From: Bilabrum cf. latius
Lineage: Eukaryota
Length of the DNA: 64,000 nucleotides
Assembly: GCA_965178125.1 (NCBI GenBank)
Contig: OZ237765.1
Span: 124,001 to 188,000, forward strand
Direction of reading: 5' to 3'
Part shown: piece after piece, positions 1 to 64,000 of the stretch
Position numbering within the stretch: position 1 is the first letter of the stretch
How the letters are laid out: every line of letters begins with the position of its first letter
Position numbers and translations under genes: made by a program
The notes under the pieces: generated by a model
The model's input: the letters and a program-made list of their open reading frames with translations, nothing else
Told to the model about the DNA's origin: nothing
Database searches by the model: none

Positions 1-2668
1 TATCTGCTTCAGCTGCCTCGCCGCTGGCATCAAGAGGGACGCGGAGCTCGCCATCATCCCCCTATTCGTCGTGGCCATCGTCGCGCATGGACACTTGCTC
101 GTCAGTACCCCCGCATGCACTGGTGTGCCTGGGGTCCTCATCCCGCGCATGCCCTGGCTCATCCATCTGGTCCTTCTTGTTATTGTCCTCGTCCTGCCGG
201 ATATTGGAAGCTGCAGCTTCCTTATCTTGCTCTTCATTGGTCCCAAATGCGTCACCAGCTGCCTACAGCACCTCATTGCGCATGGCCTGCCCCTCGACTC
301 CGCCTTCGATAGAGCCTTTGTGCGCCATTCGGCTCGTCTCATCACGGCCTCTGACCTCCTGCTTCTTCCCACCGTCCTCGTCCCCGTCCTCGTCGTTGTC
401 CATCGGTGCCTGTCCCGAACTGGCGCTCTCATTGGTACCACTGCCACCGGCCTCTTTCTTGACTGAGGTCGAGCTGCTAGCCCCAGCCCGAGCTCCAGCA
501 CCAGCACCAGCTCCAGCTCCAGCATCACCTGTCGAGTTGAGCCTGCACCTGAACTCAGCCTCTGGCCTCACCACCCGCTCCAGCCACGCCTCATGCGAAT
601 CCAGCCAATTGACATGCCCCCCCTCAGCCCCCCCCTGAGTCCCCCCCTGAGTCCCCCCCTCAGGCCCCCCCGTCAGCACCGCCGTCTCCCCTCGCCTCAC
701 CCTCCCGATCATCCCTGCCACGCTCCTGCTTACCCCGCCCGCATCCTGTTGTTCCCCGGTTGCAACCATCTCCCATAGCATAGCCACGTAACCCCCAGAC
801 CCTTGTTCCCTGACTAGCCACTCCACGGTGCTGCTCGCATCCAGGAGCACCTGGCGAGAGGCATCGCTAGGGCTGGCAACGCGGTTCGCCGCCCCGCAGA
901 GCAGCAGCTGCTGCGGACGGCCCGCCTGCGGAACCGACCGGATGGCGAGCGCGGCGCCGGGCAGTGCCCCGATCATGGGGGCCCACTTGCCCTTGCCCAG
1001 CTTCCTGGGTATCTCCGAGAGCGGCTTGGCGAGCGCCACGCTCAGTGCCCGCCTGGGGGGCACACCATGCTTGAGGGCCAGGGTGCGGGCGCGGGCGGAC
1101 GCAGGCAGCACGAAGATGACGGCGCGGTCTGGTTTGCAGGGGGGCAGCGGCCTGAGCGGCTGGGGGGGTTGCTGGTGTGACGAGTGCTCGGTCCCTTGTC
1201 GCATGCCGGCGCTCGGCCGCTTGAGGGGCGAGCCGAGCGCGGCGGCGGCTGCCTCCACAGCGGCCTCAGCGGGATCCGTTTCTCTGCCTGCTCCGCCTGC
1301 TCCGCCTGCTCCGCCACCGTCCATGATACCACCAGCGTCTTTGGCGCTGTCTTTCTGTGCACCCATGCTCTTCTCGCTGTCGGGCGAAGGACCGGATGGT
1401 GAACCGCCCGTTGCTGCTTTCTGCAGGGCGGGCCTCGTCTTGGCGCCCTGATGCACCTGGGCCTGCACCTGGGCTTGAGCCTGGGCCTGGGCCTGGGATG
1501 CAGACTCGGCTGGGCGAGCTGCAGCACCATGCAGTGCACTCGCGGTGGGAGAGTCGGCGGGAGGAGGAGTGAGTCCCGAGAAGGAGCCCATGCCTGCTCC
1601 AGTACCGCGCGACCCCTCGGTCTCGGTCCCAATGCGCAGCCCCTGCCGCTTCTCGTGTCGCTCTCCTACGGCCGGCACTGCGGCCCGCTCCTGCACCGCA
1701 ATGCGATGCATCGTCTCACGGCCCGGCAGGCTGTCCTCCATCGCAAGGGCACTGTCGTGCATTGCAGACTGATGCGGCCCCGATGCCCCCACGTTGGGGG
1801 GAAACCCCAGCAGGGAATCCCCCGGGATCAGCCCCCCCTGCCCACGAATGAAAGCCATGAGGCTGTCTTCGCCGGCCCCTGAGAGCGAGCCCAGACTGGC
1901 TCCATTGGTATTCGTCACACCCGGCCCCATCTCGTCCTTGTCCTGGTCCCAGGGCCGGCTGGTCCCACCCGCCAGAGAGTGGGGCAGACCCGGGGCACCG
2001 TACAGGCTGTTTCCTCCAAGCTCCAGGTCGTTTGCGGCAGGTGGCCACGGCGTGTGACTTGGATCAAAATCTCCTCGATAAAGTGCCATTGGCTAAGCCG
2101 CCGCAGAGGAAGATGAGGACAAGGACGTGGTGCTGCGTCCGATTTGGCTCGGGCCTGACTGGCGCTCGTGCTAGCGCGGCGGCAGTCGAGGAGGCGATAG
2201 CATTGTGCCTTGCTCGTCAGGATTCGGCAGATGCGCACCGGCTCGGGCGAGTGCTGCCTTCTGGTGCCTCTGCTGCAGCTTGATGGACCGGCTGGATTGT
2301 TTCTTGCCGGCTTGCTTCGCGGTGCTGCTGCTCGACCGTCGCGACGATGGTTTGGTTCCGCTGCGCTTTGAGTTTGCCTTTGAAAATGTCCTAGCCTTAC
2401 CATCAGAGCGGGGGATATTCCTTGAAGTCTTTGAGGATCCAGGCTTGGTGGATTTACTGGTCACTGCGAACATTGGCTGTCGCGGCGGCTCTGCGCCAGT
2501 CTCAGCCATAGGCAGGGAATCAAGCCCCGGTCCTTGAGATCCAGCACTACCACCCGAAGGCACAACGCGTTTCGAAGCAGGAGTCTTGATCAGAGCCTGC
2601 TACGGCTTACTGAGCGCTGCAAGTGCAGCTGCACGGGCTCCTTCGTACAGATTTTCTGCAACTTCCAT
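1..2668 (-). CDS. Low-complexity hypothetical protein, 3' end beyond the window; weak resemblance to the Cramped/TKI1 domain; needs TAG=Gln
   Basis: ATG at 2668, then one frame open to the window edge with only TAG interruptions (2600, 2171, 2093, 263, 62). It joins track ORFs 2171..2563 and 263..2089. The segment AVIFVLP..ARTLALKHGVPPRRALSV...KPLSEIPRKLGKGKW recalls CRAMP1/TKI1 (by eye only). Confidence 0.65.
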
Positions 2669-3339
2669 TCAAAAACCAACTAATCAAATCGGAGCACAGT
2701 AAATTCAAAATGTACGTGTGCAATATTGCAATATTTTTTCTCTTCAGTCCTAGGTATGTCGAGTCCTGGAGATAGATGAGCTTGGCTGCACCTCATTTGA
2801 AATTTGGCGCCGCGCTAAACGGAACCATTTGTGCGCGGTGCCGATCGGCTGGCGACCGATGGACGAGTCGACGATCGCAGACCTTATCTGGCCTGAATCT
2901 ATCGTCGGGGCGATCATTCGTACCATTTGTTGCTCCGCAATATGATTCGATGGCATCGAAAATCATCGCTGCCCGATGGGCCGCTGATCGTTGGTGCCCA
3001 TCGCCCGCCGATAGTCGGCCCCCGCATCGCGGCGCGATGGGCGCCGGAGCCCGCCGGCACCGCTCGTGGGGCGATGACTCGCCGATGAGACCGAAATCTA
3101 GAATCCCGGCTTTGGGCCTTGCTGCCTACTGCGAATGATTCAGATTTGATGCTAATGGTATAATGCGTAATGATTGTGCCTCTTGGTGGCCATGCCTTGG
3201 CCTAACACTGTACAAGCCTGCCCAAAAGTGCGATTCAGTTCCTGGGTTGCGACCACCCAGTACTCGCGATCCGATCCGATCTTCCGGCCACATGACTATG
3301 GCACTGCACCTTCTGTGAACCTCAGCGGTAGTACAATAA

Positions 3340-3422: not shown

Positions 3423-3998
3423 TGGCTGGCTGGCTGGCTGGCCACCCATCTATCTCCTCCCTTGCTGTGCTCGTCATCGTATGTGGTTGTAGCCTGTGTA
3501 TGCGCACGCAACTGAGCTAATACCAGACGGCCGCCAGGCGTGGCAACTCGCTCAAGCCGACCCGGATACCGGCGCCAAAAGTTGAAGGACTTTCGGTAGG
3601 TTTGTTGTGAGGGATTATTTCAATACGTCATTTACGGACCGCGTGTAGCATTCCACTGACGGCCATCGAGGCAGACGTGGCAGGTGCGAGCTGCGAAGTG
3701 CGCTAGCCGGCGACCCCTCCGACTCACCCGGTGGGCCAGCTCAAACCAAACTACTGAGGGTACTACTAGGTGGATGTGCTTTATCCACCGCCACCAAGTG
3801 CAATATTCATGGAATTCATTTTTGACCGTTCGGCACCAGGCCCCAACAATTTTTGGGGGCACAGGATCTGTGACCCCCCTCCCCCTTCCCCTCCCCCACT
3901 GAGGGGTCTGTCTGCTCGTGAGAGCTTGTCTCCACCCGACTCGCACAAACCTCTGGAAGAGGTACACCGCCGGTCGTATCAACCTCAAATTTGCAGAA

Positions 3999-5681
3999 AT
4001 GCAATCAATCGTTTCTATTTTAGTTGCTCTTGTCGCCTGTTCGGCGGTCAGTGTGCACGGGCGACGAGCAGAAGGCCAGCTGCACCTTCGCAGCGCTGGC
4101 TCTATGTCGTCGGTCTCGGTCCACGCCAGCAGCAGCCACCATACGCGCGAGAGATGGTGGGCAAACCCGAACTTTGACAATGTTGATACATTGTCCTGCG
4201 ACGTGAGCGCCTTGGCCGAGAGGAAGCCGGCAGAGGGCGACAGGCTGCAGAGGGGCGAGATTCTGCACTCCGCCAGCGGCATGCACGAGAATGCCCTGGT
4301 CAAGGATAAGACGAAAGTGTGGCTCCGGAAGGACTGCAGACTGGTCGTTTATGGCAAGTATGGGTATTCCCTTGTGGATTTGTTCGTCTCCAACCCCAAC
4401 CCCGAGAAGCAGGCCGACCACTGCGCGCTGGTCTTGACGGATGCATCGTGCAGCACGCAGGGAGACCTGGCCATCATCGACACAGATACGGGCAAGTACC
4501 TCTGGCGGGTGAAATCATCTCTCTTCACACCCGAGGTCGACGTGTTTCAGGCCGTGGGGACCAGCAAAGCCACTCTCTTTCAGGAAGGCGGGCATAAGCT
4601 GTGGAGCACCTATCAAAACAGGAATTATCCGGGCAGTAAGGGGTTCTTCTACTTTGATCTGGAGGTGCGGGAGGACGTGCACAGTCTGCACTGCGATGCA
4701 GGGGCCCTGCAATCGTCATACAAACAAGCGTCCGACAACTACGTGCTATTGCCCCGGAGGATTCTGCGAGCCGGGACCTCATTGACGACGTACACGGGCT
4801 TCGAGCTGCGCATGCAGGATGACTGCAACCTGGTGGTGTACCGAGGGGGCCAGGCGATATTTGCAACCCGCACGATGGGCAAGGGTACCGAGGGGAAGTG
4901 TGCACTCGTCGTCACGGCGGAGGGGTGCGACACCCAAGGCGACATGGCCATCGTGGACAGCGCCTCCGGGCAGTACGTATGGCGGGTGCCTGCCTCTCTG
5001 ATGGATCCGGGTGCAGACACCCTTTTTCTGCAGGATGATGGGGATGTCGTCCTGTAGCTGCCGGGAGGTCCTATCGTGTGGCGGGCGGGGTCTTCGAACC
5101 TGGATAGTCCTCACGACGACAGCACCTTCGGCAATGGTCGCAAGATGAAGGCCCTGCATGCAGCTATCGAAGGGGCGGCTCCTCCTCGCTGCGACCCCCA
5201 GGCGCTTGCGAAGCGACCTGCCGCCAAGGGGGACTCTCTGTGGGAAAATGAGGTGCTGGCCATGGGGCAGTCGCTCCGGCCGCCAGATGCCGGCAAAAAG
5301 GAGGCTGTGACAGTCAAGGACGACTGCGTCCTGGAGGTGCTCAACAATGACGGAAACTTCGCTTGGAGGACGCATACCCAGGGCAAGGCCAAGAAGTGCG
5401 CACTCGTCATCACGGGAGAGGAGTGCGACCGCGCGGGAGATCTTGCTCTCGTGGACATGGACAGCGGGGCGTACCTGTGGCACACCGACACGTCCTACGT
5501 ACGGCCCACGGCCAGGGTGATGTAGCTGTGGGGCGACGACTTGATCCTGTTCCAGGATGGTACGTTCTATCGTATGTGGAAGTCGCGTCCTCGTTTCGAC
5601 GGCCCGCCGTACGATAGGCATGAGGTGCCTAAGAAATTCAGAGGTGCGTTCGAATATATGCACCAGTCCCAGGATGCGTGA
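3999..5681 (+). CDS. Secreted bulb-type (GNA/B-type) lectin-repeat protein, copy 1 (about 560 aa with TAG=Gln)
   Basis: Signal peptide MQSIVSILVALVACSAVS. Three repeated modules, including the QxDxNxVxY mannose-binding motif (MQDDCNLVVY) and FLQDDGDVVL. In-frame TAG at 5055 and 5523; ends at TGA 5679-5681. Confidence 0.8.
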
Positions 5682-6735
5682 GGGGGGTCTTCGTTCGGCG
5701 GTCGTGAAAGCACAGGCGGGGTGCAATTCCCAAGAAGCCAATCCGGCATCATGACAAAACCCGTTCTCGGCTTTTTCGGCAGATGTACTCGTATTGCTTC
5801 CGCACGGATCGGCACGAATTGAAATAATTGCAAGAATCATCGCTATCAATCTGAAGCGCACGCGCTACTAGAAACACATCAATCGATCTGCTGAGCATCG
5901 CTGCCCGATGGGCCGCTGATCGTCGGTGCCCATCGCCCGCCGATAGTTGGCCCCTACATCGCGGCGCGATGACTCGCCGATGAGCGCCGGAGCCCGCCGG
6001 CGCCGCTAGTGCCACCACTGACGATCCGATCCGATCCTCCAGCCACATGACCGTGACATTACACCTTCCAAAGCTCAGCGGTAGTACGATGATGCTAGTT
6101 GTGGTGTGGCTGGCCCCCCATCTGCCTCGTCCTCCTCCTCTGCTGTGCTCGTCCTCGTGGTGTGGCTGACCCACCTGTGTCTCGTCCTCGTCCTCTGCTG
6201 TGCTCGTCCTCGTGGTGTGGTTGTAGCCTGTGTATGCGCACGCAACTGAGCCGATACCAGACGGCCGTCATCAGGCGTGCCAACTCGCTCAAGCCGACCC
6301 GGATACCGGCGCCAAAAGTTGAAGGACTTTCGATAGGTTTGTTGTGAGGGATTATCTCAATACGTCATTTACGGACCGCGTGTAGCATTCCACTGACGGC
6401 CATCGAGGCAGACGTGGCAGGTGCGAGCTGCGAAGTGCGCTAGCCGGCGACCCCTCCGACTCACCCGGTGGGCCAGCTCAAACCAAACTACTGAGGGTAC
6501 TACTAGGTGGATGTGCTTTATCCACCGCCACCAAGTGCAATATTCATGGAATTCATTTTTGACCGTTCGGCACCAGGCCCCAACAATTTTTGGGGGCACA
6601 GGATCTGTGACCCCCCTCCCCCTTCCCCTCCCCCACTGAGGGGTCTGTCTGCTCGTGAGAGCTTGTCTCCACCCGACTCGCACAAACCTCTGGAAGAGGT
6701 ACACCGCCGGTCGTATCAACCTCAAATTTGCAGAA

Positions 6736-8421
6736 ATGCAATCAATCGTTTCTATTTTAGTTGCTCTTGTCGCCTGTTCGGCGGTCAGTGTGCACGGGCG
6801 ACGAGCAGAAGGCCAGCTGCACCTTCGCAGCGCTGGCTCTATGTCGTCGGTCTCGGTCCACGCCAGCAGCAGCCACCGTGAGCGCGAGAAGTGGAAGGCA
6901 AACCCGAACTTTGACAATGTTGATACATTGTCCTGCGACGTGAGCGCCTTGGCCGAGAGGAAGCCGGCAGAGGGCGACAGGCTGCAGAGGGGCGAGATTC
7001 TGCACTCCGCCAGCGGCATGCACGAGAATGCCCTGGTCAAGGATAAGACGAAAGTGTGGCTCCGGAAGGACTGTAGACTGGTCGTTCTTCAAACGTCTAG
7101 CTTTGGCAAGAAGGAGGATTTGTTCCTCTCCAACCGCAACCCCTCGATGCATGCCGAAAGCTGCGCGCTAATCTTGACGGATGCATCGTGCAGCACGCAA
7201 GGAGACCTGGCCATCATCGACACAGATACGGGCAAGTACCTCTGGCGGGTGCAATCCTCTGTCTTCACACCCGAGGTCGACGTGTTTGTGATCAAGTATG
7301 AAGGCAATGCCATTCTCTTTCAGAGAGACGGGCATCAGCTGTGGAGCACCTTACAAAAGAAGAACTTTCCGGGCAGTACGGGGTTCTTCCACTACGATCT
7401 GGAGGTGCAGGAGGACGTGCACAGTCTGCACTGCGATGCAGGGGCCCTGCAATCGTCATACAAGCAAGTGACCGACGGCGACGTGCTGTCTGCAGGGCAG
7501 GTGCTGAGAGCCGGGGCCGCCTTGAGGGCGGGCGAGTAGGAGGGGGTCGAGCTGCGCATGCAGGATGACTGCAACCTGATGGTACACCGGGGGGGCAAGG
7601 CGATATTCGCGACCCGCATGAATAACAAGGGTACCGAGGGGAAGTGTGCACTCGTCGTCACGGCGGAGGGGTGCGACACCCAAGGCGACCTGGCCATCGT
7701 GGACAGTGCCTCCGGGCAGTACATCTGGCGGGTGCCTGCCTCACTGACGGACCCGAGTGCAGACACCCTTCGTCTTCAGGGGGGCGGGAATGCCGTCCTG
7801 TAGCAGCCGGGAGGTGCTATCGTGTGGCGGACAGGGGTTTTTGACCCGATCAGACTCGACGGAACCTTCGGCAATGGTATCAAGAAGAAAGCGCTGCATG
7901 TAGCTATTGAAGGGGCGGCTCCTCATCGCTGCGACCCCCAGGCGCTCGCTAAGCGACCTGCCGCCAAGGGGGACTCTCTGTGGGAAAATGAGGTGCTGGC
8001 CATGGGGCAGTCGCTCCGGCTGCCAGAGGCCGAGGACAAGAGGGCTGTGATACTAACGGACGACTGCGTCCTGGAGGTGCTGAACATTGATGGATAGTTC
8101 GACTGGAGGACGCATACCCAGGGCAAGGCCAAGAAGTGCGCACTCGTCATCACGGGGGAGGAGTGCGACCGCGTGGGAGATTTCGCTCTCGTGGATATGG
8201 ACAGCGGGGCGTACCTGTGGCACATCGACACGTCCTACGTGCGGCCCACGGCCAAGGTGATGTAGCTGCGGGGCGACGACATGATCCTGTTCTAGCAGGC
8301 TACGCTCATATGTATGTGGAAGTCGCGTCCTAGGTATAAACATCCGCCGTTCGATCTGGACCGCAAGCCCCCAAGGTTCTATGAAGCTCTCGAATACGCG
8401 CGCGATTTTCATGAATATTAA
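6736..8421 (+). CDS. Secreted bulb-type lectin-repeat protein, copy 2 (about 561 aa with TAG=Gln)
   Basis: Colinear paralog of 3999-5681. In-frame TAG at 7537, 7801, 8095, 8263 and 8293; ends at TAA 8419-8421. Its length matches copy 1 only if TAG is read through. Confidence 0.8.
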
Positions 8422-8667: not shown

Positions 8668-11600
8668 TCAACGGCGCATTATCTCGTACATGAACACGCA
8701 GATCGACCCCCCCGCCAGCAGCACAGCCACCCCGATGGACAGCCCGGACTCGTCCAGCCTCTCCTCCCAGTATAGAGACGGGTTCGTCCCACGCACAAGC
8801 AGGTCACTCCTGCTGCCTTTTTGGGGCGCTGGACCCACGCAGTACTCATGTCCGCACCCACCCACGATGCACACCAGAGCCCAGCCAACGCAGGCAAATA
8901 CGGCCATATCTTCCCACAGACGGTGCCACACCGATGTGCGATTGACAAACTGACGCAAGACAGAACTTGGCGGAGGAGGTGGCGGCAGGTCAAATGGAGG
9001 CGGTTGCTATTTACCATCATACTCCCTTGAGTCCATGTGGATCTCTTCCGTCGTATTCTCGAAATATCTTGATGCAAACCTGGGATCTGTGGCCTCCGAG
9101 ACACCCGACCACATGAGCAGCTGAGCGTCCCATTGGAGGATCTAGAGCGCGCGGAGTACAACTGCAGCGGCAGGGTGCGAGCCGATTGATTTCGCAACTG
9201 CCCGCGAGTGCAGCATGACTAGCTTGAACGATGTGCCTGCATCGGCGCGTGGCCCTGCTGCAGTCTTAACAGCATGTGAGAAACTAGCACTGGCATCCAG
9301 CCCACCGCCTGAAAGGATGCTTGCCCCTGGAGCCTGCATGGGCTGCTCGCGATTCGGGCCCAGGATCCCCCGATTGTGATTCCCCCCCTACCGTCCATCC
9401 AGCCACTCTTCGCTCTCAGATGTGCAGATTTTGTTGGCCTGCGACCTGTCTCCATTCAGAGAGGCAGTCACAGCATGGAGCTGCCCTCCATCGCTGGACC
9501 CCCGATGAGTACCCCGCTGAGATCGGTGGGCTGCACCCGCATCATTATCGAGGTAGCTGTACCCAAACAACTCTCTATCATCAACCGAGCCCAGCGCATG
9601 AAATTCAGAGCCGGCTTCGTTCGGTCTCGGGGTGACGTTTGTCACGTGGTCGGTGGACGCCAGCCGCGCGTTGTGACCACCGCTGGATGGGAGTCTTGGT
9701 GTGGCAGGTCCGCCACTGCGGCTACCCCCGCTTTCCAGGCTCCGACCCACCTTGCTTCTCATGCTGCTTCCACTGCTCTTGTAGGGCCCGTGGTCGAGTG
9801 TTCGAGCTGCAGGATGCAAAATCTCGCTCGTCACATCGTCTGCCCTTTGGAGTCGCAGCTTGGATCCGACTCCCGTGATAGTACTGACTCCATCCACATC
9901 GATAGCGCCAACACCTGCCCACTTAATTCTCCTGTTCCTTGTCTTGCCGTGCACAGTTCCGGCCCTGCTTGCTATCGCAAGGCCCAACACGTCCCCGTAC
10001 GCGGGATTGATCTGGCAGCAGGTGATGAGACAAGGCCGGCAGCAAGGGCAGGCAGCACAGCGACACTGGCAGAGCGCTCCCTGTCCGCGATCCACCCCGA
10101 CCCGATCTGGGCCAAGCCCAAGGAGAAGGAGTATCCTGTGGAGCAAGGCCAGGCCAAGGGCAAGGAACAGCGCGAGGGCAGGAAGCCTCATCCTGCCAGA
10201 GGAGAGGGCAGCTCCCAGAAGCCAGTACGTGCTAACGCGGTACAGCGCCAGCACAGCCAGTGTGCCATCTATCGGCGGGCTTGACAACAGCTGGGAGAGC
10301 CTGTCACAGCCACAAGATGTGCAACATAGCCATTGATCGCTGCATTGGCCCCGCACCACGTGCTCTCTGGGATCCCCGTCGTTCTCGTCCATTCGATTCT
10401 GCCCGACATGCCGGGTGCCGCTTGTGTTGACTTCGTTCGAGAACTCGTCGTCGTCCTAGTCGGGCACCTCCCAGCGCTTCTTGTCTTCCCAGTGGTCTAA
10501 AGCTGCAGTCTCATTGGGATTCCCGCCGACATTTGCCATGCCGTTGGCAGGGGCCAACGCTGGGTTGCCTGGGTAATGCCCTGGCGGAGATGCAGCTGCA
10601 GCGGCTGCGGGCCTGGGTACCCCCTTGCCCTTGGTCGCGGTGGCCAATGCAGTCTACAGTGGGGTGGCCGATGTGGCGTTTGGTGGAGCATCCACACTTG
10701 CCCCTGTTTGCTAACCGTGGACAGCGCCAGCGGGTGTGACCCACGCAGTCCGGTCGCGACCATAATCCTCAACAGCGCCGCTTGGCGCCTCTACCACGGA
10801 CGGGGCAACTGCCCAGCCAGCCGGACCGCTGTTGGGACCTACCGCTCCTTCGACTGCCTCTGACTCTGAAGATTTTCCTGCTGCTGTCTCCGTCCCAGCT
10901 GCAGCTGAAGCGATCGCCTGCTGCCATTGCCTGTGTGCTTGGAGAGCGGCCACCTGGCCAGTTGCTGACCTGCGCCCAGAGGCTCTAGCAGATCGATCCA
11001 GTACCACGCTTGCGTTGGTCGTGCTGGTGTCCCACCTCTCGTCCTCGCTGCTGCTTCTCCCGTGCATCAGGTTCGATCGGGCCCAGCCGCCCTCACGGCC
11101 CCGAATCGCTGCGGGCCCTGATTCCGATACGACAGTCGCTTCCATATCATCCGCATCGGTGGCTGGCCCGCGTTGCAGCGGGAGCACTGCACCTGCGGCG
11201 CTATCAATTTGGTGTGACGAGTGCTAGGAGTGGCGCTCAGTGCTGAGTACCGGCATGGAGCCATCGAGCAGAAGCAGGCCACCAGTGGATTCGTCGATGG
11301 ACGGCACGACGATCACGTCACCCCCACAGCGCTGGTGGCTCCTGTCGCTGGTGTCGTTCTCCACGTGACTGGGTGCATTAGAGCCGGTGCAGCTGCCACT
11401 GCCACTGGCGAGCTCTTCACTTGGTCCCTTTGCTTCGTTCGCTGCAGTTCGCGCGGCGCTCTGGGAATCGGATTCTACCGGCGCGAGTCTGGCCAGCTCC
11501 AATCGAGGCACTACGGGACCCTAACTGTGGGTGCTGCTGCTGCTGCTGCTAGTGCCTGGACCACGGACAGCAACACCTATACCCCTAGCTATTGCGATGC

Positions 11601-15864: not shown

Positions 15865-17100
15865 ATGGCATCATTACGAACGACCCTTGCGTATTAATTT
15901 GACGGCATTACCGACGAAAGCCCCTCACCGTTGCATGCTGAACCGTTGGACTGCACGGGCACGCCGAGCGGTACTGAGACCTGAGGACCAGCTGCTTGAA
16001 TAGCACTCCACACATCTATACCAACTGCCTGATCTGTACATGTGTATGCAAGGATGATGCACATGGAGAGAGCCCTCATCGGAAATAATGTGCGCATGGT
16101 CATGACAGTCGATCCTAGCCTCTCAAAATCAAGCGAATTGCGATGTCCTACAAGAACGTATCATTAATAAATCAACACTCGGCATTTTAACTGCCTGTGA
16201 TGCATGTTTCGAGAGTATTAGCTTAATTCAACAATCAGGTGAACGAACGTTCTACCCCTCAACTGGTCGCATTTTTAGTACGTGGTCGCACTACAGGTTA
16301 AGCATAATGGATCCCGGGAGCGTGCGCTTGCACGCGTGCCTCGAACTACACGCAGCATCTGCGCCATGGCGCCTGCCGAGTTGGCAGAGCTGGCATGTAG
16401 CATGCAGCAACCAGACCAGACCGTGGCCAAGCCGACTTGGCTAGCAATCATCATGCAGGCTAGGTCTTCCATCTGCACTCGCCGATTCACCGGCGCCTAG
16501 CTTTTCCTAGGCCCTTGCAACCACCCTGGCCATAGCACACATAGATGCACCCCGCAAGACACGCGCGCCCTGACCCTCAAGGGTACGTACCCACCGCCGT
16601 TAATCCACGCCGGATGAGTCCTGAGGGTACCTGACCATCAGGTTGGGGGCCCGAGGGAACAAGTGCTGGGCAGGGTCGAGCCTGACCCCTGCCAGCAATC
16701 ACTGCTCCCAGGCGCCGGATATACCAATTGCGCCTCGAAAAGGGAATCATTCAGACACCGAGTGGGACGTCAGAGGGAAGGGCGATGACGATGAGTAGGG
16801 ACCGGACGGCCGGCGGTGGAGGCACCGGAGGAGATTCGCAGGACCACTAGCTGGGCGGCTAGAGGGTCAGCCGGCTGCCACACGGAGTTGGTGAGAAGTG
16901 AAGGGGCGGGAGTAGTAGGCTGGGATAGTGCGTCTGGTTGGGGGAGACTGGGCCGAGTGAGCCCAGGATGCCTCTTTCAAGGTTCGTAGCGAACGTGCGC
17001 CGAACCCATCAGATCCACCGGTTGCTGTTGCCGCAACCCCGGGACATTGAGCTCCCATCGCTTCGATCCAATGCTTTATTTTGGTTTCTATACGCATTAA

Positions 17101-24622: not shown

Positions 24623-24676
<54 letters not shown>

Positions 24677-27753: not shown

Positions 27754-27845
27754 TGATGATGCCGATTTCCTCCAAGTGTGTCCCAAGTATGCCAACGTCT
27801 CAAGGCTAGTCCGTGCATGCCACCAAGCTCGAAACTAAAAGAAAG

Positions 27846-50216: not shown

Positions 50217-50344
50217 CGAGTGCGGCTGCCGCTGCAGCAAGATGGTTCTTAATCCGAGCATCGCCGAGCCATCCAACACATTTCTGAGCAAAAAACCGAA
50301 GAAAACAAGCAATCTCGCATACATCAGTGCAAATAAGTGATACA

Positions 50345-52388: not shown

Positions 52389-52965
52389 GCAGGTGTGTGT
52401 GCTTCAGGGGGGAGGGAGGGGCGGCCCCATTCGGCAGACGGATGAGCAAGAGGGTTGAATGGAAACAGGACAGCGGGACAGTAGTGATGGCTTCGCAGCC
52501 GCACAGTGGAAGCGCGTGCGAGGGAAAGAAGGCGGCGGCATGGCTGGCGGCAGCGGGCGCGGTGCTCTGGTACAGAGACGCGCCCGGTGACCGCGGCCGT
52601 GTCCGTCGTTTCCCTCGCTGCTTCAAATCCTCGTCCATAAGGTATCAATGGAGCAGTATGCGGGGGGCATACGCATCAGGCCGAATGGGGGCAAGTAAGG
52701 AGGTTGTTGCTAGTTGAGTGTTGCGTGATTCGTGCAGATTTGAACGCTTCCGTGAAGTGCCGTGACAGCGTATCGTTCACGATCCGCGCCCTGAATTCAT
52801 TTGCATGGATACTGTCGAATAGATGCGTCCAAGTTAAGCTGCATTCGGTTGGGTTCAGCGGCAACAAGTTACGCAGGGCTGCGCCCAGGCCTACCTCTCC
52901 GCCTCCCACCAGCGAACCCACATGCGTGCGGCTTTCACGGTCCTAGCAACCCAGTCCCAGCCTAT

Positions 52966-53661
<696 letters not shown>

Positions 53662-53844
53662 GCTTGCAGTATTATTTTGTCTTACGCTCAGCATTCGAGC
53701 TGGTGGTTCGATGATCGGATTACACTCGTCATATGCACTGATGTCCATTTCCTGGACCCCCATTGCAACTTCCTTTCGGTTTGCCGCGAGTTTTAGCCCG
53801 CGATAGCATGAAAGAAATTATATACAGTTGAATCATTTGCGAGT

Positions 53845-55657
53845 ATGCGAAGAAACCGCGTAGTTCAAAGATGCATACGGACACTTGCAGTGCAATTGCG
53901 TGTTCGATTCCAGCAATACGGGATGAGGTGGGCAACCACACATCCTAGCGTTGATGTTGTTGTCATTGGAGGTGGACATGCTGGATGTGAGGCGGCGGCT
54001 GCTTCTGCACGCGCAGGGGCAAACACGGTGCTCCTTACGCAAACTGCCGAGCAGGTGGGCGAGCTCAGCTGCAACCCGTCCATCGGGGGCGTAGGCAAAG
54101 GCACTCTTGTCCGTGAGGTTTCCGCCATGGGAGGCATCATGAGCCGCGCCGCAGACGAGGCCGGCATCCTGTTTCGCATGCTGAACCGCAGCAGGGGCCC
54201 GGCCGTGCACGGCCCGAGGGCCCAGGTCGACAGAGCCCTCTACAAGGCCGCGGTGCATCGCATGGTGTTGCAGGAGACCCCTAACCTGCAGCTGCACGAG
54301 GGCCTGGCACAGGATGTGGTCATCTCCCAGGCCAGCGGGCGAGTGACGGCTGTGCTCACCGAGGCGGGCGACGTGCTGCCCTGCAGGGCCGTGGTGCTCA
54401 CCACTGGGACATTCCTGAGGGGCGTGATCCACGTGGGGGACAGGCAGATCCCCGCGGGGAGGAGAAAGAGGTCCAGGGCGGAACTGGAAGCGGACGGAGA
54501 CGGCTGCAACCCGAAATCAATAACCGCCGCCCCAGGGCGCGGGGTGCGGCTAGACGACGAGGCGGAGGCGGAGAAGGAGAAGGATATCGACCTGGCGGAG
54601 CCCCCGAGCGAGGGATTGGCGCTGACGCTGGAGCGAATGCAGCTGCCTCTGGGACGACTGAAAACCGGCACCCCTCCCCGCCTGGACGGCCGCACCATCA
54701 ACTGGGAGTGTCCAGGGCTGGAGGCGCAGAGCACCGACGAGCAGCCGTGGGTGTTCGATTACCGCCGGGAATACGCGGGCGAGCTTCCCCCCGTGGTGGC
54801 GAGGGGGGAGACCATCCGGTGCATGGCCACGAGGACGAACGCCAGAACGCATGCCATCGTGTCGGAGAACAGGCTGAGGCTACCTACATTCGTGGGGGGG
54901 GGTCCGCAGGGGGAGGGCAAGGGGCCGAGGAACTGCCCCTCGATCGAGTCCAAGGTCAGGAAGTTCCCCGACAGGGAACAACACCTCGTCTGGCTGGAGC
55001 CCGAGGGGATTCGGAGCCACATTGTGTACCCCGCAGGCATCTCCACGGGCCTACCCGAGGACGCCCAGCTCAGGATGGTCCGGTCCATCCGTGGGCTGGA
55101 AGAGGCCGAGATGGTCGCACCGGCCTATGCCGTGGAATACGACCACGTGGACCCCAGGTGCCTCGACCCTACCCTGCAGCTCAAGGGGGGCGGGGCCACG
55201 GGGCTCGCGCGGTCCGGATCCACTTCCGGTTTGGGGCCGGGCTCCGGTTCTGGTTCCGGTTTCTTCCTGGCCGGTTAGATCAACGGCACCACTGGGTACG
55301 AAGAGGCCGCGGCCCAGGGGCTGGTGGCCGGTGCCAACGCCGCCCTTCTGTCGCTGGGCAAGCCCCCCATGGTGCTGGACAGGACCCGGAGCCTGACAGG
55401 TGTGATGATTGACGACCTCACCAGCAGGGGGGTGGCCGAGCCGTACCGCATGTACACTGGCAGATCCGAGTACAGGCTATCGGTAAGGGCAGACAATGCT
55501 GACCTGAGGCTGACCCCGGCGGCGTGCGAGGCGGGGCTGCTGCGGCGGGAGGGGCTGAGGAACAGCGGGGGTGCGGTGCATTATTTTGCCTGGCCTGACG
55601 TCACTGCGGAGCTGCCTCCGCTGGATTGCCAAGACGAGCACGGCGAGGAGCACCTCT

Positions 55658-55688
<31 letters not shown>

Positions 55689-56979
55689 ACATTAGCAGCA
55701 GCAGCAGCACCAGCAGGAACATCAGCAGCAGCAGCCCACGACAGAGGGAGGTGGAGGCGCCAAGGCTGCACCATTTCTGGGCGACCGCCCCGACTGGGCC
55801 GATGCTGTGGTGCTAGAGACAAGGCAAGATAGGGCCGCCGCAGGGCGTGACGAGTGGCTGGCGAGGGCTGGCGAGGACCAGTGGAGGGGGTTCCGACGGC
55901 GGGCGAGGCGCGTTGAGATGGCGGGGTAGGCTCTTCGGGAGGCTGTCCTAAGGCCGGGGGAGTGGGGAACAAAGGGAGTCCAGGGAATAACCGAGGATAT
56001 CGGTCGCGGTGCTAAGACGGGGAACAAGCCGGGGAACAAGCCCAGGGCGGTGAGCGAGCTGCTTCAGGCAGGCGTGGTGAGTACTGGGGAGGACGCAGCG
56101 GGGCTCATGCAGCGGGCTGCTCTGGGCCGACTGCAAGAGGCAAGGCAGCTCCTGAAAGACGCGATGAGCGTGTATTTCGGGGGGGACTGTGTGACGAACA
56201 GGTAGGCGTGGGTGGAGCAGAAAGCTGCAGGGGCTCTGTCTGGCCTATTGCAGCGCGGGGAAGACAGCATCTTCGACGGTAAGGAACATGTGACGAGTGC
56301 TTGGGCCAGGGAACAGATGGACGGCTCCCGGTCGGGCGGCGAAGATGGCGAAGTGGACCAGCGGGACAGGTCCTTGCCCTGGTCGGCTGCCCTGCGAGGT
56401 GTATTCGGGGCCGGCCTGCAGCCAGACATAGAGCGGGCGGCCGGGCTGATCCAGGGGGCGGCGGAGCTGTGCGACCACGTCAGTGCGGCGGGTCACCATG
56501 CGGCTAGAACCACCGCTGGGGTGGAAGCGAGGTACTCGTCACACGTGCAGCGGCAGGCGCGGGAGGTGGGACGTGTGACGAGGGCGGGGCGTCTGCCCCT
56601 TCCTCAGTGGGTGACGAGTGCGTGGCTGGCCGTGCCGGGGATTCCCCGCGCCGACGCAGAGGCCCTGCAGTCTGCCGGTGTGACGAGTGTGGGGGAGGCG
56701 GGGCGGGTGCCCGGGGTGCGCCCGTCCACCGTGTCGCTGCTGGCGGCGCTGGCCTCGGGCGAGGCAGCCACTGCCAGGCCCGGGGTCGCAAGTGGGGGTG
56801 ACGGTGCATCGCATGGTGGTGCAAGAAGTGGGGGTGTGGATAGGCAGGGAACAGGTCTAGAGGAATAGGCTCGCACAGCTGCCGTCGCTGATGCTGGCAG
56901 TGGTAGTACCCAGCCTGAGGGTGTGACCGCCGGAATCAGCGCCAGGCAGCGGAGGCGGTTGAAAGCTGCACAGACCTAA
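53845..56979 (+). CDS. MTO1: Mitochondrial tRNA U34 modification enzyme MTO1/GidA (MnmG), about 1044 aa with TAG=Gln
   Basis: [68 protein letters not shown](TAG)[40 protein letters not shown] and C-terminal [16 protein letters not shown]. Six TAGs; TAA stop at 56977. Confidence 0.93.
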
Positions 56980-57139
56980 TTAACGTTGTTTCGATCCATG
57001 GGTGCATGTCTGCTGCAGTTCGGGGACACCCCATGGCGGCGTTCCACGGCTCAGCGGTTGCAACCTCCTTTTCAGAGTTGCTGTGACGAGTGCTGAGGAA
57101 CCCCACCCACAGCCGCACAATAAGGAACCATAACAGAAC

Positions 57140-58420
57140 ATGTCGGCTTGGAAGCGAGCCGCTGCGTCGGGAGGCAGTATCGCTAAAACAATTGCCTCGG
57201 CGTAGGTCGTTGGTGTGGAAGGAAAGGCTGAATCAGGGCCTGCAGCAGCCGTCGAAGCAGCGTCGGTTGTGGTTGCGCCAAGCTTGCCGTCTGGCTCCAC
57301 TGCGCCTTCTACGGGTTCATCGTCTGCCCCAACAGCTGCAACTACTACTGAGGGTGGATCTATGTCAGCTGCAGGCGCAGGAGTACCGTCGACTGCGCCT
57401 TCATCAGGTGCGGGGGCATCAGGCGGGAAGAGTAAATCGGGTCGTAAAGGCGAGCATTGGAATGTGTTTAGCGAAGCTGTACAGCTGATCATCAGCGAAT
57501 GGCCTATTCTACGTACAGCATTGCAGCAGCAAAGTGCAGGTTCGAAGACAAGAGAGCGTTTCGATGATATGCTCGACGTGCTGCTTGAGAACTTGGTGGA
57601 GGTATGGGATGAAGGCGATTCTTTATCATGGCTAAGCGTATTCGACTACTTGGAAGAAGTGTTAGATACAGACCTCAACGTCGACTTTGACGGCGATGCA
57701 CAGTTGCAGGCGGTGAGTATTTCGACAGTATTTGACGTGGATGTATGGTGGAGAGCTGCCGCGTGATGCATACTTTTTCCAATGGCCCCGAAGCTTTCGC
57801 GGTGTGGGCAACCTTTTTAAGATCGTTAGGACTGATGGCACTCTCCATTACTATGCTCGAATCCCCGCACGTTGCGCGGTTTTCGAATCATGCTTGCTGC
57901 AAGCGCCAGTTCTGTTACGAATCACACATCTTGCACGATCTAATACCCGCGATTTGTTTGCATTGCATCGCAGGTATCCCGACAGGTTGAGAAACTCTTC
58001 AACGATTGCGCGGCGGGCAAGCCGGAGCCGGCCCAGGCGCTCATCAAGGTCTTCGAGGAGCGCCTCGAGCAGGAGGCCGAGGAGGCGCGCGCCATGGGGG
58101 CCAAGGGGGGAAGCGCTGCGGCTGCCGGTGAAGATCATCATGACGATGACGATGACGAGGAGGAGGAGGAGGGCGATGATGGGTGGGCCAGGCCAAAGGG
58201 AGGCAAGGGCAAGGGAGGAGCAGGAGCAGGCAGCGGGGCGGCATCGCCGGCAGCGGCTGCCACAGGCGGTGCTGGTGCTGGAAGTGCTGCTGTCAGCTCT
58301 GCTGCTGCTGCATAGGCGGCTCCCGCGAGTAAGGCTGATGGAGAGGATGGTGACGAGGATGATAGCGATGACGACGGCTGGAAGGTGGTTGCGGGGGGCA
58401 AGGGGAGGAAGGGGAAGTGA
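57140..58420 (+). CDS. TSR2: Pre-rRNA-processing protein TSR2-like (exons 57140-57712, 57974-58420; about 339 aa)
   Basis: FSEAVQLIISEWPILRTAL...DYLEEVLDTDLNVDFDGD|VSRQVEKLFNDCAAG, an acidic tract and C-terminal DDDGWKVVAGGKGRKGK. TAG at 57203 and 58313; TGA stop. Confidence 0.75.
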
Positions 58421-58606: not shown

Positions 58607-61534
58607 TCACCGGAGCACTTGCCTGACCATCCTCGGCGCCCTCCCCGTCTGCAGCACGCACGCGTCCCAGGGCCCCTCGCCCCCGGGCGTCTCCTTCGCG
58701 ATCGTGGCCGGCCCTGCAAGAGGCGGGTCGCACCCGGCCTCTCGAGCCGCCGCTGGCCTAGGCTCGAAGCTGCCGTCGGGCCGGAACTCACCGCAGTGCT
58801 CGCCTCTCAGAGCTCGCTCCGCCATGGCCACCAGCCCCTCCTCCTGCGCGGCTTGCTCCTCCTCTCTCGATTCGCTGACTCGGGCTAGTGCCTCTCCGAG
58901 GAGAGCCATCGCGTGCGAGGGCGGGAGGTGAACGGACCTGTGCTTCTTCACGTACACGGATTCAGGGGAGACCAGCCGGGGGTCCAGCCGAGAGCCGAGG
59001 CGAGTCTGATCACTTCCGCTGCTGTCTCCCTCCCTGGTTTCGACGCCCCTACCCCCGCCGCTCCTCCCAGCGGCCCCAAGCCACCCGCCGCTCCCCTGCG
59101 GCCGGTACACCTGGTGCGATAGGCCCTCGGCCGCGGCCCCCAGGTCGCTAAAGTAGCGGACGGGATTGCCCAGCGGCTGCATCTGCACGACAGCGGAACC
59201 GGCGCCGCGCATCCACAGCATGTTGGACAGCTCGTTCCCGTGCACGGTCACCATCACGTCGGCCGCCCTCACGAGCCGCACCTGTTCGTGGAAATCGAAT
59301 CGGCCCAGGGTGCTGAGCCTCACGTCGAGCACCACGGGCTGCAGGCCAAATCGAGCATTTTCTCCATGGGTTTCCGTTGATTTTTCGATCACCGCATTGA
59401 TCTGCTGCCTGGCCGCCGCCAGCTGAGCCCGCGTGACTGGATCGTCTCCCTGTGTCTCGTTGGCAAGGGACCAAGGCACGCGGCTGGGCAGGACGAGATC
59501 CTCGGGGGCAATACCTAGCACTGCACCGAGAGTCTGGTGCAGGTTGCTCTGGCTCCTCCTCCACCCCGTGCGGTACAGCCACAGCACTCGTATGACCCGC
59601 GTGAGAGAGGCGTGGGGCCATGGGCCCTTCGCCCACCTCTGCAATGCGTCCGCTCCATCGCCCTATCTGTTGTTCCCTGAGGCACCCAGGGGGGCGGCCT
59701 TGTCGCGTGTTTCTGGTTCGTATTGCAACATCCAGCTGGGTACCGCAGCAGAGCCTTCATGCAATGCACCCTACCCGCCCTCGGTAGATCCGGGCACGGC
59801 CCACACCCTAGATCGGAACAATGATTCCTGCTCCGGGTCCACCCCGGGCACGAAGCCTCCAGCCTCGAGCGACTTCCAGCCGCCCTCCCTTGTGTTCTCA
59901 AGCACGCTCACGGGCGCAGCGCCCGCCGCTCGCCAAGCAGCCACACGGGCCACCGCTGCGGTCCGTCTCCTGATCTGGATGGGGCTGTAGGGAGCAGGGG
60001 TAGCCGGGGGCATGCCCACGTGCACCCTCTCAAGACACAGCGAATCATGACCATCCTCATCTTCATCCTCATGATGGCCCCCCTCGTTCTTCGAATCCTA
60101 GGGGGGTGCATGACTGCCCCAGCCCCCTCCATGGCCCAGCCTGTCCCCGGGACTCACTGCCGCCAGCTCCCGAGCCACGAATATATCCGTTACGAGCCTG
60201 GGAGGAGGCCTTCCCCAGCGCTGCACTGCATTGCGCTGCCCCACGGCGGCAGGAGTTTGTCTCCCGGTTTTGCTGTTGCTGTCGCTGGTGCCGCGTGAGT
60301 CAGGCGATGTGGTGGGCAGCCCCTCCGGCCAGGCTCCGAATCCTGTCAGAAGGACGGTGTGTTCCCCGAAACCGTCCGCCGGCCACAGCCCCGATCCACC
60401 GTAGCCCGCGTTTGGCCCCGTGGGCACCTGCTGGTAGTTCGGTAGGATGGCGAGGACGAGTGGCCTGGGTGCGCCTAGGTTGAGCCAATGGTCAAGGGCG
60501 GGCAGGTATCCGTTGAGTAGCCAGTGGGCCAAGTGAAACGCCGAGTACCACCTGGTCGCAAGCACCGTTGCGCCTAGGAGCCTCGGGTGACACCTCGAGG
60601 CATGAGCACGCTGACCAGCTGCTTCCCCCCTGCCGCTTGTTCCCCCCCTCCCTCTTGTTCCCCCACTCCCTCCCGCTCTGGCTGCGACTCGCGTTGGGGG
60701 GAGGATCGGCAGCCTGTGCACGCGTTCTCTGAGCGGAAGGTCTCGCGAGATTGCGGTGGTGTGAATGTCGATGGCACGTGTCCCCACTGGCAGTGGCAGG
60801 GTGCGGACCGCACCGCTGCCGCTGCCCTCGCCAACAGCTGGCACTGGCACTGCAAGGGCTGCTCCAGGACCGTCTGAGGCGCGTGCTTGGCGGCGAACTC
60901 CCAGCGCTATCGCCGCCTAGAAGAAGCATATCATGTGTGGCAGCGCCCCTGCTTCCAGCACGTCGTGGCTGCGCTGGTCCCCGTCGCTCTGCCTTGCGAG
61001 GCCCGCGCATAGCGGCAGCGGCACTGCGCTGCGACTGTCCCACGGCCTCGTCACTGATTTCGATGCGTTTGCAAGCAGACGAGCTGTGGCCAGATGATGC
61101 AATGTCAGGCCTTGCGACACTGGGTGAAACCCCGGATTGCCACCGCCATGGCGCAATTTCGGTGGGAGTAGTAGTGAAATGCGTAGGCCATCCTACTGCA
61201 GTGAATTACCAATTGCGTCTGCAGGCAATTTATAGCCTGATTGCTCGCCAAGCACAGGCAGCCGGACGGGTACCGCTCCTGGCCATCCTATTACTTCGAA
61301 TAGCCTTCGATTGCCAGACTACTCATTGTACGGTAATAACCATGGCATTCCAGAGTTTCGGAATGCATTTGAATGATGCTCCACACTCGTCCAACTAACG
61401 CATATGAAGACCATGAAAACCGCTATGATGGACAAGGCTACAATCCGGATGGTTGAAGAATTATTGCTTCGGCACGGTGCACATTGTCGCAGCTTAGCAA
61501 GTGGCCGGTGATGTACCCTCTAGTGACCACGCAT
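58607..61534 (-). CDS. Glycosyltransferase family 61-like type II membrane protein (about 975 aa with TAG=Gln)
   Basis: N-terminal anchor IRIVALSIIAVFMVFICVSW; FHLAHWLLNGYLP; FDFHEQVRLVRAADVMVTVHGNELSNMLWM...AVVQM. Single frame with six TAGs (61520, 61193, 60917, 60098, 59771, 59663); TGA stop. Confidence 0.78.
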
Positions 61535-62888
61535 TTGCAATCACCACTAAAGGTATGAGTTGCTCGGAAGATCCGGCATATCGTTATGATTAGCGGTGTA
61601 AGGCACGTGCAACCACTGGCAACTCGAACCGGAATTGCTGCACGGCCGGCGGCGCGCAGCGCGGATTTTGGCATGGCACGCGCGGGCACACACGAAAAAG
61701 CAATCGAATCAAAGTTCATACGGCCTTGTGAGCAGCTTTCTGGGGCTAAGATTGGCGTGGTATTGCAACTGGCGGGACAAGTCGCGAAGCCAGGTGCACG
61801 CAACGATGCACGGCGAGGTTGCACGGACGAGTTGACCTGTTTCCGATGCGAGAGATGGGTGTGCTGTAGTATGGACTACGCGCGCAGTCCTACCAGTGTT
61901 GTGGCACAACGAGGCTTGGCGATGCGCTCAACCATCTTCAAAACGTGAAGCCAGAGCTATCCAAAACTTGATGAGACTAAGAAGCCGGCAATTTGACTCA
62001 AACAGGCTTTTCAAATCGATCGCTAGGCGGACACAGCGTCTCTCCGCTGGCATCATCCAAATTCACTAGCCACGAGCAGATGGCGTCCGGCGTGCACGGC
62101 TTGATCCACTGCGCCTGGTCTCCTTGCTTCTTCTTGCAGCCGTATGTCTCCCAGTACACCACATTCCGAAGCGCCCAAATAATACTTTCAAGTGATTTCA
62201 CGCACTGCAGACTCGTTTGAAGAAAGGCAAACTTGTGGCAGAAGAAAATGGGAGGCATGACTGGCCGCTGTGAGGACATTTGCACGGTTGCTGCTCACTG
62301 CTCTCTATTGCTCGGGCGTTTTAAGTCCCCTGCACGTGTATGGTTGACCCTATTCATGGTTTGAAAGGACATACGTGCACACCGCGCACATGTCAGAGGC
62401 CTATCCTAGCTAGGATTCTTCTGCCTCTCCCTCCTCCGGCTAGTTCAGCTGAATGAGGGACATCACATCGCTCTCGCCCCCTTCAAAGACTGCCTAACTC
62501 GCATCCGTCACGTGCCGGGCGAGCGCCGTGGGTAGCTCAGCTTGCGCCCCCTCCCCGTCCGCGTTCGATCGAAGCGATGCTCGATTTGCTTGGTGCCTAT
62601 TTCTCCGACCCTACGCCTAGTTGCTCGGGCGAAACCCAAACGAAACCCCAACACATAGGCAAATCACCAAAAGTACTGGTCCCATGGGCCAGAGGACCCA
62701 GTTATTGGGAGCCTGAGCTGCGAAAGCCAGCACACATCCGATATACATAAAACCGCACGTTACCCCCAGAAAGTGCAACTTGCATAAACTTGATTATTTT
62801 CCCACTGCATCACGCCGTGATAAGCTGCGATAGCGTAGTAACAGAGTGGCCGCAATCGAATCAAGCATACAAGTTTGGCCGTCAAGTG

Positions 62889-64000
62889 TCACTGGCCGCC
62901 ACCACGCCCAAGCCGCTGTTGCTGCGCCCCTTGCAGTGCGTCCGTCAGCTGTCGGATGGTGTCGAGCATCTAACGACGGGGCACTTGCGCGGCGCCTCCA
63001 CCTCCGGAACCAGTTGCCTGTCCAGACTATGACCCAGCCTCACTTCTGATCGAAGTCCCCGTCGGACCGGGGTGACCCCCTCGTCTCCTCCCAGGGGAAA
63101 TCCCCCCCCTCAACCCCGCGGGGGTGGACTCCGCCCGTCGCAGCACGGAGCGACCCGCCGCCAGCGCCGCGGCGTGGGATGGCTTTAGGCCCCCCCTTGG
63201 CGCCGATCCGCGTGCCAGCTCTTTTGCGAGGGGGGTGATCGCGTCCTCCTCCTCCTCCTCCTCCTCTTGCTCTGCCCCTGCCCCTGCCCTTCCAACTCCC
63301 AGCCCGCTGCGGTTCCTCATCGACCCCCGGCTCCGGCTCCGGGTCATGCCCCCCCTCCCGAGCGCCAGACGACTCACATCGTCTTCATCTTCATCTTCAT
63401 TCTCACCGTCGCTGCCCCCAAGGTACCGAACGAAGGCCCCACCCCCCGCCGACTTGAACCGGCGCAACCCCCTGTCCCTGTCCCTGCCAGTACCCTCTTT
63501 GCCTGCGGAACCGGCGACGCGACCTAAGGACCGGGCCCCCGGCGATGCCCCTGCGCTTAGGTCCCGCCCCGCTGCGCGGCGCCCCTCGCTGCGACCTCTT
63601 TGCGGAACCTCACCACGGAACGACCGGTCCCTGTCCCCGTACCCCCTTGCCCTATCAGTTCCCTGTCCCTGCTTATGTCCCTGCTTCCCACGACCCCTGC
63701 CCCGGCCCCGGCCTCGACCAAGCCCAGCCCCCGCAGCGGCGCGACCTCCGGCCCCTGGCCTCATGGCCCCTGCAGCCGCTGTGGATGATCTCGTGAGAGT
63801 GCCCCGCCGGCCATACCTGTAGAACTCAAGCGCGGGGGGCCCGCCCGGAGTGCGCCCGCCCCGTTGTTCCCTGGACCTCCCCAAATCCTGCTCGCCCCCC
63901 TCCCCCTCCCCTTCCCCCATGGACGTGTCATCATCCCCATCCAGCCCAAGCCCGAGATCATCACCCTCACCCACTGCACGGACACCATCGTCGCTGGGAC
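62889..64000 (-). CDS. 3' part of a low-complexity Gly/Arg-rich hypothetical protein (5' end outside window)
   Basis: ORF 63027..63974 continues through TAG 63027 and 62970 to TGA 62889. Confidence 0.6.

Follow-up and report, generated by a model that had tools for sequence, protein, structure and literature searches.

Can a single stop codon become an ordinary sense codon of a nuclear genome while the other two go on ending its genes? This question is raised by a 64,000-nucleotide stretch of the assembly GCA_965178125.1, deposited as Bilabrum cf. latius (contig OZ237765.1, positions 124,001 to 188,000 of the forward strand; the whole stretch is referred to here as the window), for which an original prediction, made from the letters alone, had proposed that UAG is read as glutamine and that UAA and UGA remain stops. 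The follow-up analysis described below leads to essentially the same view: UAG is very probably an ordinary glutamine codon in the nuclear code of this organism, making up about one-tenth of its glutamine codons, with UAA and UGA as the sole terminators. The organism itself appears to be a stramenopile, probably one that stands near Cafeteria. The window is gene-dense, with a guanine-plus-cytosine (GC) content of 0.59-0.67 in 4-kb steps, and its gene families were assigned by Pfam scans of the long frames.

TAG inside the reading frames

The argument starts from 19 stop-to-stop frames, which were picked by length, by GC content at third codon positions and by Pfam content, and which amount to 16,945 codons in total. 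These frames contain 72 TAG codons and no TAA or TGA, to be compared with 86 and 84 TAG, 23 and 54 TAA, and 269 and 255 TGA in the two off-frames over the same stretches; TAG is thus as common in frame as off frame, with TAA and TGA being excluded. All but two of the 72 TAGs lie past the first in-frame ATG, and the earlier estimate of about 70 in-frame TAGs is thus roughly right; they had been said to spread across 17 genes, and 14 of the 19 frames hold at least one. TAG accounts for 9.8% of the glutamine codons in the 19 frames, and in-frame TAGs fall within the MTO1, mitochondrial carrier, GH10 and aconitase-family domains.

The length of the frames gives the same picture. With the standard code, the longest stop-to-stop frame has 935 codons, whereas with TAG alone released as a sense codon the longest frames measure 3,550, 2,400, 1,122, 1,103, 1,055, and 977 codons. 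When TAA alone is released, the four longest frames stay as they were (the longest at 935), and release of TGA alone likewise leaves the longest at 935, even though TGA is the commonest stop trinucleotide on the + strand of the window (789, as compared with 388 TAG and 170 TAA). The longest of the frames opened by TAG (17101-27753, +) carries 18 TAGs; about 53 TAA and TGA taken together would be expected in it from the overall trinucleotide frequency, and neither codon is seen. The second longest, the 2,400-codon frame (8668-15870, -), carries 15 TAGs and ends in TGA. As a GC-rich control, TAG was released in 28 other TOP6A loci, some of them at GC 0.56-0.62, in which the longest frame barely moves (780 to 783, 885 to 885, and 944 to 944 codons, with 956 to 1,201 being the largest change). 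In the same control, the longest frame of a metagenome contig designated L001 goes from 522 to 980 codons.

A related contig with in-frame TAGs of its own

Contig L001 (9,678 bases, GC 0.57) was found by scanning metagenome contigs with TOP6A and is collinear with positions 49080-58194 of the window, with a DNA identity of 80% in TOP6A. The genes compared in this region are TOP6A/Spo11 (47742-50216, +), which was assigned by Pfam, has 824 codons without any TAG and ends in TGA; a mitochondrial carrier (51381-52388, +; Pfam Mito_carr, E 3e-19), with TAGs at 51573-51575 and 52005-52007 and a TGA end; a fusion of ubiquitin with ribosomal protein L40 (52966-53661, -); and MTO1/GidA (53812-56979, +), an unbroken frame of 1,055 codons with six in-frame TAGs and a TAA at 56977-56979, which was identified by Pfam (GIDA, E 2e-124) and by its match to MnmG in the PDB (E 1e-126). 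The copies of these genes in L001 carry in-frame TAGs as well, three in TOP6A, four in the carrier, one in ubiquitin, and four in MTO1, including sites other than those of the window. L001 is a metagenome contig of a related organism and an independent assembly. The trait is common to both organisms and so predates the split between them; present in at least two diverged organisms, it would be a property of the lineage rather than an oddity of one strain.

Across 80 metagenome loci with TOP6A, in-frame TAGs in the matched stretch without an insertion were found in L001 only, and L001 alone groups with the window, the others being mostly Ostreococcus-like or from other algae. The public standard-code TOP6A protein of L001 (P0003; positions 3-1514 of the contig, +) breaks off exactly in front of the first C-terminal TAG, so that it lacks the last 26 residues up to the conserved end, and is thereby a concrete case of a database truncation caused by the genetic code.

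The ubiquitin-L40 gene, which was delimited by translation, has in the window a first exon consisting of the ATG at 53661 and five further codons, a GT-AG intron of 309 bases (53335-53643, -), a second exon starting at 53334, and a TAA at 52966-52968. The intron stands directly after codon 6 (MQIFVK), and in L001, too, these six codons are followed at once by GT. In L001 the gene lies at 3939-4609 (-); its coding block has 92% DNA identity to that of the window, a level of conservation that no other part of the syntenic region comes near.

Termination at UAA and UGA

Within the window lie 18 frame ends, 14 of them TGA and four TAA, which cannot be TAG by construction; independent support comes from frame length and from five ends fixed by homology. 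The original prediction had listed 15 TGA and four TAA among 19 ends. The five ends fixed by homology are those of TOP6A (TGA), ubiquitin-L40 (TAA), MTO1 (TAA), and two lectin-like paralogues lying at 3903-5681 (+; TAGs at 5055-5057 and 5523-5525; TGA end) and 6640-8421 (+; TAGs at 7537, 7801, 8095, 8263, and 8293; TAA end), both with weak Pfam matches to PQQ_2/B_lectin; TAG is used in none of the five. In TOP6A an identical C-terminus is followed by TGA in both the window and L001, and the C-terminus of ubiquitin-L40 (KKKLK) is likewise the same in both and is followed by TAA. The MTO1 gene ends in TAA in the window and in TGA in L001, with the same residue count past the conserved SAR-Q-RRRL motif, and the TGA of the first lectin-like paralogue stands opposite the TAA of the second. 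By these aligned ends, UAA and UGA still terminate genes in the window and in L001, as had been predicted.

It has to be considered here whether UAG could be ambiguous, meaning glutamine inside genes but also serving as a stop close to the 3' end of some of them, in the manner of a context-dependent code. Frames built with TAG as a sense codon would hide any genes truly ending at TAG, and just the five ends named above are fixed by homology. Those five, however, are TGA or TAA without exception, and conserved sequence continues past TAGs that lie close upstream of the true stops (at a distance of 26 and 18 codons in the TOP6A of L001, and of 37 codons in MTO1). With two dedicated stop codons still available in addition, a dual role of UAG is considered improbable.

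Less probable again is a code in which UAA and UAG both mean glutamine (UAR = Gln, NCBI table 6), with TAA being too rare in 64 kb of GC-rich DNA to show itself inside genes. Such a code could appeal to TAA being the rarest stop trinucleotide of the window and to the joint reassignment of UAA and UAG in the majority of variant codes described so far (PMC11687900). At the CAA:CAG ratio of the frames (146:517), however, about 20 in-frame TAA codons would be expected if TAA were glutamine, and not one is seen in the 16,945 codons. Moreover, TAA follows the conserved C-terminus of ubiquitin-L40 in the window as well as in L001, it stands opposite a TGA stop in the alignments of MTO1 and of the two paralogues, and its release does nothing for the four longest frames.

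TAG as it stands in the DNA

That the TAGs are not translated as such, being assembly or sequencing errors for CAG, or sites of mRNA editing to CAG, or parts of tiny introns, is regarded as very improbable. TAG and CAG are one transition apart, and DNA alone cannot speak against editing of the mRNA; site-specific U-to-C editing of nuclear mRNA is, though, not known on this scale. Thirteen sequencing-run entries contain the stretch or part of it, six of them with at least half of its sequence words; four of these six come from one sample and may be the source, and none of the entries is recorded as RNA. An origin in errors is contradicted by L001, an independent assembly with in-frame TAGs at other positions, by three TAG sites that are TAG in both members of a compared gene pair, and by the frequency of TAG in frame, which is about that found off frame and is unlike that of sporadic errors. 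Tiny introns would find no room, as the TAGs at the invariant glutamine columns described below are flanked by contiguous conserved residues.

Glutamine at the TAG sites

The clearest single site is the TAG at 55276-55278 in MTO1, where the aligned column is glutamine in 120 of 120 homologues, where E. coli MnmG has Q and where the orthologue in L001 has CAG; the protein string around it on which the original prediction had leaned is present literally. Two further TAGs of this gene (55657-55659 and 55693-55695) sit, as had also been pointed out at the time, inside a run of CAG codons, here a CAG/CAC/GAA repeat encoding a poly-Gln tract (55657-55695) which is an insertion without counterpart in the 120 homologues. 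In TOP6A the situation is the reverse, with CAG codons 799 and 807 of the window being TAG in L001, at positions where 118 of 119 and 119 of 119 homologues, respectively, have Q. The inspection of conserved columns thus yields three that are invariant or nearly invariant for glutamine; other columns are variable. In one TAG column of the L001 MTO1, Q is the most frequent residue (55/120).

Comparison of the genes with one another adds to this. In the carrier, the window has KTRM-TAG-CAG where L001 has KTRM-CAA-TAG, and the second TAG of the window pairs with a CAG in L001. The carrier string quoted in the original prediction, PIDLVKTRM*, is found in no frame, the actual one being AIAVKTRM-TAG-Q. 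Ubiquitin-L40 has TAG in L001 where the window has CAG. Between the lectin-like paralogues, both TAGs of the first are TAG also in the second, and the remaining TAGs of the second pair with CAG, TAC, and AAC (one each) in the first; the CAG/TAG swap between paralogues that had been reported earlier lies at codon 551 versus 552 of this tandem pair.

For a pooled count, all window-L001 orthologues and the paralogue pair were taken together, and TAG observations were kept at a local identity of at least 0.5. The partners in the resulting 23 observations are Q in 12, TAG in six (each of three TAG-TAG pairs entering twice, once per side), K in two, and S, Y, and N in one each. When the partner is an ordinary codon of the orthologue or paralogue, it is therefore CAG or CAA in 12 of 17 cases. 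In the same alignments, ordinary glutamine codons have Q or TAG as a partner in 75% of 150 cases, and codons for E, K, R, S, Y, L, and W have such a partner in 0-3% of cases (2-3% for E and K, and 1% for L). The assignment of UAG to glutamine made in the original prediction is borne out by these partners together with the invariant column of MTO1 and the two of the L001 TOP6A.

Another residue such as glutamate or lysine, as in some ciliates and trypanosomatids, could be argued for from columns in which E or K is the commonest residue (MTO1 codon 661, E in 56/120; L001 MTO1 codon 971, K in 41/120) and from the two K partners, but it is hardly credible in view of the three (near-)invariant glutamine columns, the glutamine partners in 12 of 17 cases, a summed BLOSUM62 score at the TAG sites of 61 for Q as compared with 24 for E and 20 for K, the rarity of Q or TAG as the partner of an E or K codon, and the TAGs within the CAG repeat.

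Observations weighing against the assignment, and a possible mechanism

Reading UAG as glutamine, with UAA and UGA as the only stops, has to be weighed against several observations that do not favor it. Five of the 17 partners other than TAG are not glutamine (K, K, S, Y, and N). Aside from the columns at MTO1 codon 661 and L001 MTO1 codon 971 with their preference for E and K, the column at codon 886 of the L001 MTO1 has E in 51 and Q in 9 of 120 homologues, and that of the aconitase-family TAG is variable (P 55, E 24, and Q 10 of 120). Alignments with solved xylanases from the PDB place the two coding TAGs of the GH10 frame opposite V and E, at variable positions. Taken as alignment columns, these variable sites are compatible with glutamine as well as with many other residues. 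The zero count of in-frame TAA and TGA is partly circular, the frames having been delimited by those very codons, and the ends fixed by homology are few, the other 13 being different from TAG by construction.

The number of genuine sense TAGs may also be smaller than 72, as in-frame introns or 5' leaders that escaped recognition may account for some of them, and two precede the first ATG. The GH10 xylanase frame (36675-38126, -; Pfam E 8e-71) has three TAGs, two of them past its first ATG, and ends in TGA; between the two halves of its Pfam match lies a hydrophobic, unconserved in-frame insertion of about 50 codons (37190-37340, -). This insertion looks like an unspliced in-frame intron, and some of the 72 TAGs could for that reason be intronic. 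Furthermore, no tRNA genes were found in the window (ARAGORN, Rfam) or in L001, and the placement near Cafeteria discussed below comes from one gene, with a moderate support that is below the star threshold of the tool.

By analogy with other UAG-only codes (PMC11687900), the reassignment could have been brought about by a change of a tRNA-Gln anticodon from CUG to CUA, which would require a single base and would allow the tRNA to read UAG while leaving UAA alone, in combination with a release factor eRF1 that would have lost efficient recognition of UAG, or no longer competes efficiently at it. It is the proposed ability of a tRNA with the CUA anticodon to read UAG but not UAA that would permit the two codons to part ways. 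The Pfam scans of the long frames found no eRF1 gene within the window, and Rfam found no other RNA family there.

The organism

Among the named matches of TOP6A, the two best are an entry bearing the label Symbiodinium sp. KB8 (81%) and one from Cafeteria roenbergensis (78%), with oomycetes and red algae coming next, and the best named matches of MTO1 and of the aconitase-family gene are oomycetes. A maximum-likelihood tree of TOP6A was built from 31 rows, that is, the window and 30 sequences chosen by us from the 120 matches listed. In this tree the window and L001 form a pair at 100/99, and this pair is part of a seven-row clade at 92/95 together with two Cafeteria sequences, the KB8-labelled record, and one sequence each from the lgn and ena sources. 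These matches and the tree suggest that the organism is probably a GC-rich heterotrophic stramenopile near the bicosoecid Cafeteria, and they agree with the view expressed in the original prediction that it fits neither the fornicates nor the ciliates. Cafeteria can be grown in culture, and we take it to use the standard code itself. A search for an rRNA gene in the window with Rfam found none.

Two other origins were considered and dropped. The GC-rich, low-complexity proteins brought a green alga to mind, which was given up on the strength of the match lists and the TOP6A tree. An aphelid was considered in view of a supposed UAG = Gln code in that group; the code there is described as UAR = Gln (PMC11687900, PMC5304391), and the genes of the window group with stramenopiles.

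Contigs from prokaryotic bins were also scanned for sequence belonging to this organism. There was no match to the carrier, and the TOP6A query retrieved solely an Asgard archaeon contig at 56% identity (L081), with no DNA of this organism. The gene on L081, which comes from a metagenome-assembled genome labelled Candidatus Asgardarchaeum abyssi, lies at 5952-6950, and the 56% identity of its product to the TOP6A of the window extends over all 333 residues. Its sequence would be either unusually close for an archaeal one or mis-binned eukaryotic DNA.

Other genes of the window

Several further frames complete the inventory. The aconitase-family gene (31521-34166, +), of the fused homoaconitase/isopropylmalate isomerase type by Pfam and the PDB, has one TAG and ends in TAA. 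Frames ending in TGA are those of a protein with DEP and PH domains (27615-30926, +; three TAGs), of an enzyme resembling the pyridoxal-phosphate enzymes of Cys/Met metabolism (41831-45199, +; two TAGs), and of 977 codons with a weak match to GT61 (58607-61540, -; seven TAGs), all three assigned by Pfam. MRP-L47 (46922-47770, -) and an ankyrin/PH protein are also among the Pfam families present. The 3,550- and 2,400-codon frames code for low-complexity proteins rich in Ala, Gly, Ser, and Arg, and neither they nor six smaller frames have any Pfam match. A search of the PDB with the carrier protein returned no match.

The MTO1 gene is apparently intronless and contains long low-complexity insertions, the poly-Gln tract among them; its C-terminal half is far longer than that of bacterial MnmG (1,055 codons in total, as compared with about 630). 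The lectin-like paralogues stand in tandem and share 79% protein identity, with the first 78 residues of their frames being identical, including 32 codons upstream of the first ATG. This identity suggests a recent duplication or a gene conversion of the 5' end.

Significance and comparison with known variant codes

The practical consequence of such a code is that most genes of this organism come out cut short or in pieces when they are called with the standard table, a fate that would befall 14 of the 19 frames described here. Annotations, orthologue sets, and metagenome bins that include this lineage are distorted until the right table is used. The more general interest lies in the fact that codes in which UAG and UAA differ in meaning are few, those named in the literature consulted being Iotanema, Protocruzia, phyllopharyngean ciliates, a rhizarian, and Scotinosphaera (PMC11687900). 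Such codes test how the release factor and the suppressor tRNA manage to separate two codons that usually change together, and a stramenopile case in a GC-rich genome would, if true, supply a further and separate origin against another background of base composition.

As to novelty, the original prediction had called the reassignment possibly undescribed. Full-text literature searches did not turn up any stramenopile for which a changed nuclear code has been described, a result that is provisional, as most subscription journals and supplementary tables lie outside their coverage, and the word "stramenopile" is absent from the main text of both PMC11687900 and PMC5304391. The code thus appears to be one of a known kind in an apparently new lineage. 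Whether it represents the first nuclear code change in stramenopiles, that is, an independent origin of UAG = Gln, with UAA and UGA still stops, in a free-living, GC-rich heterotroph near Cafeteria, which is common to at least two diverged organisms and has TGA as its main terminator, is a claim for which we would hold the chances to be evenly balanced.

Among the known systems, a code in which UAG alone has come to mean glutamine and UAA still terminates (NCBI table 15) has been described for Iotanema spirale, Protocruzia tuzeti, and two phyllopharyngean lineages (PMC11687900, PMC5304391). Iotanema spirale, a member of Fornicata, has the same codon table as the one proposed here, with UAG alone meaning glutamine and UAA and UGA being stops (PMC5304391). 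It is, however, an anaerobic metamonad with UAA as the predominant stop, in contrast to the GC-rich, aerobic stramenopile with mitochondrial genes considered here, in which 14 of 18 frame ends are TGA; as the two organisms are unrelated, an independent origin would follow. The phyllopharyngean ciliates and Protocruzia tuzeti likewise read UAG as glutamine and keep UAA as a stop. In these ciliates UAA is described as the preferred stop, and the reported shares of UAG among glutamine codons are 18.5% and 31.8% (PMC11687900), as compared with 9.8% here, in a lineage of a different supergroup.

More distant parallels are offered by the UAR = Gln codes (table 6), which are known from many groups, including many ciliates, Ulvophyceae, Hexamita, Streblomastix, and Amoeboaphelidium (PMC11687900, PMC5304391), and in which a stop has likewise become a glutamine codon, probably via a mutated tRNA-Gln. 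In those codes UAA is reassigned as well, whereas in the window TAA does not occur within the frames and serves to close genes. An uncoupling of UAG from UAA is also seen in the rhizarian exLh and in a phyllopharyngean lineage from TARA, where UAG means leucine and UAA is a stop, UAG = Leu being described for a rhizarian and some ciliates and UAG = Ser for Scotinosphaera (PMC11687900, PMC5304391). The amino acid in exLh and the TARA lineage is thus leucine, whereas in the window TAG acts as glutamine and L codons are almost never paired with Q or TAG. Set against those UAG-only codes whose preferred stop has been reported, which is UAA in both Iotanema and the phyllopharyngean ciliates (PMC5304391, PMC11687900), the code described here would have arisen in a different mutational setting, in a genome with TGA as the main terminator.

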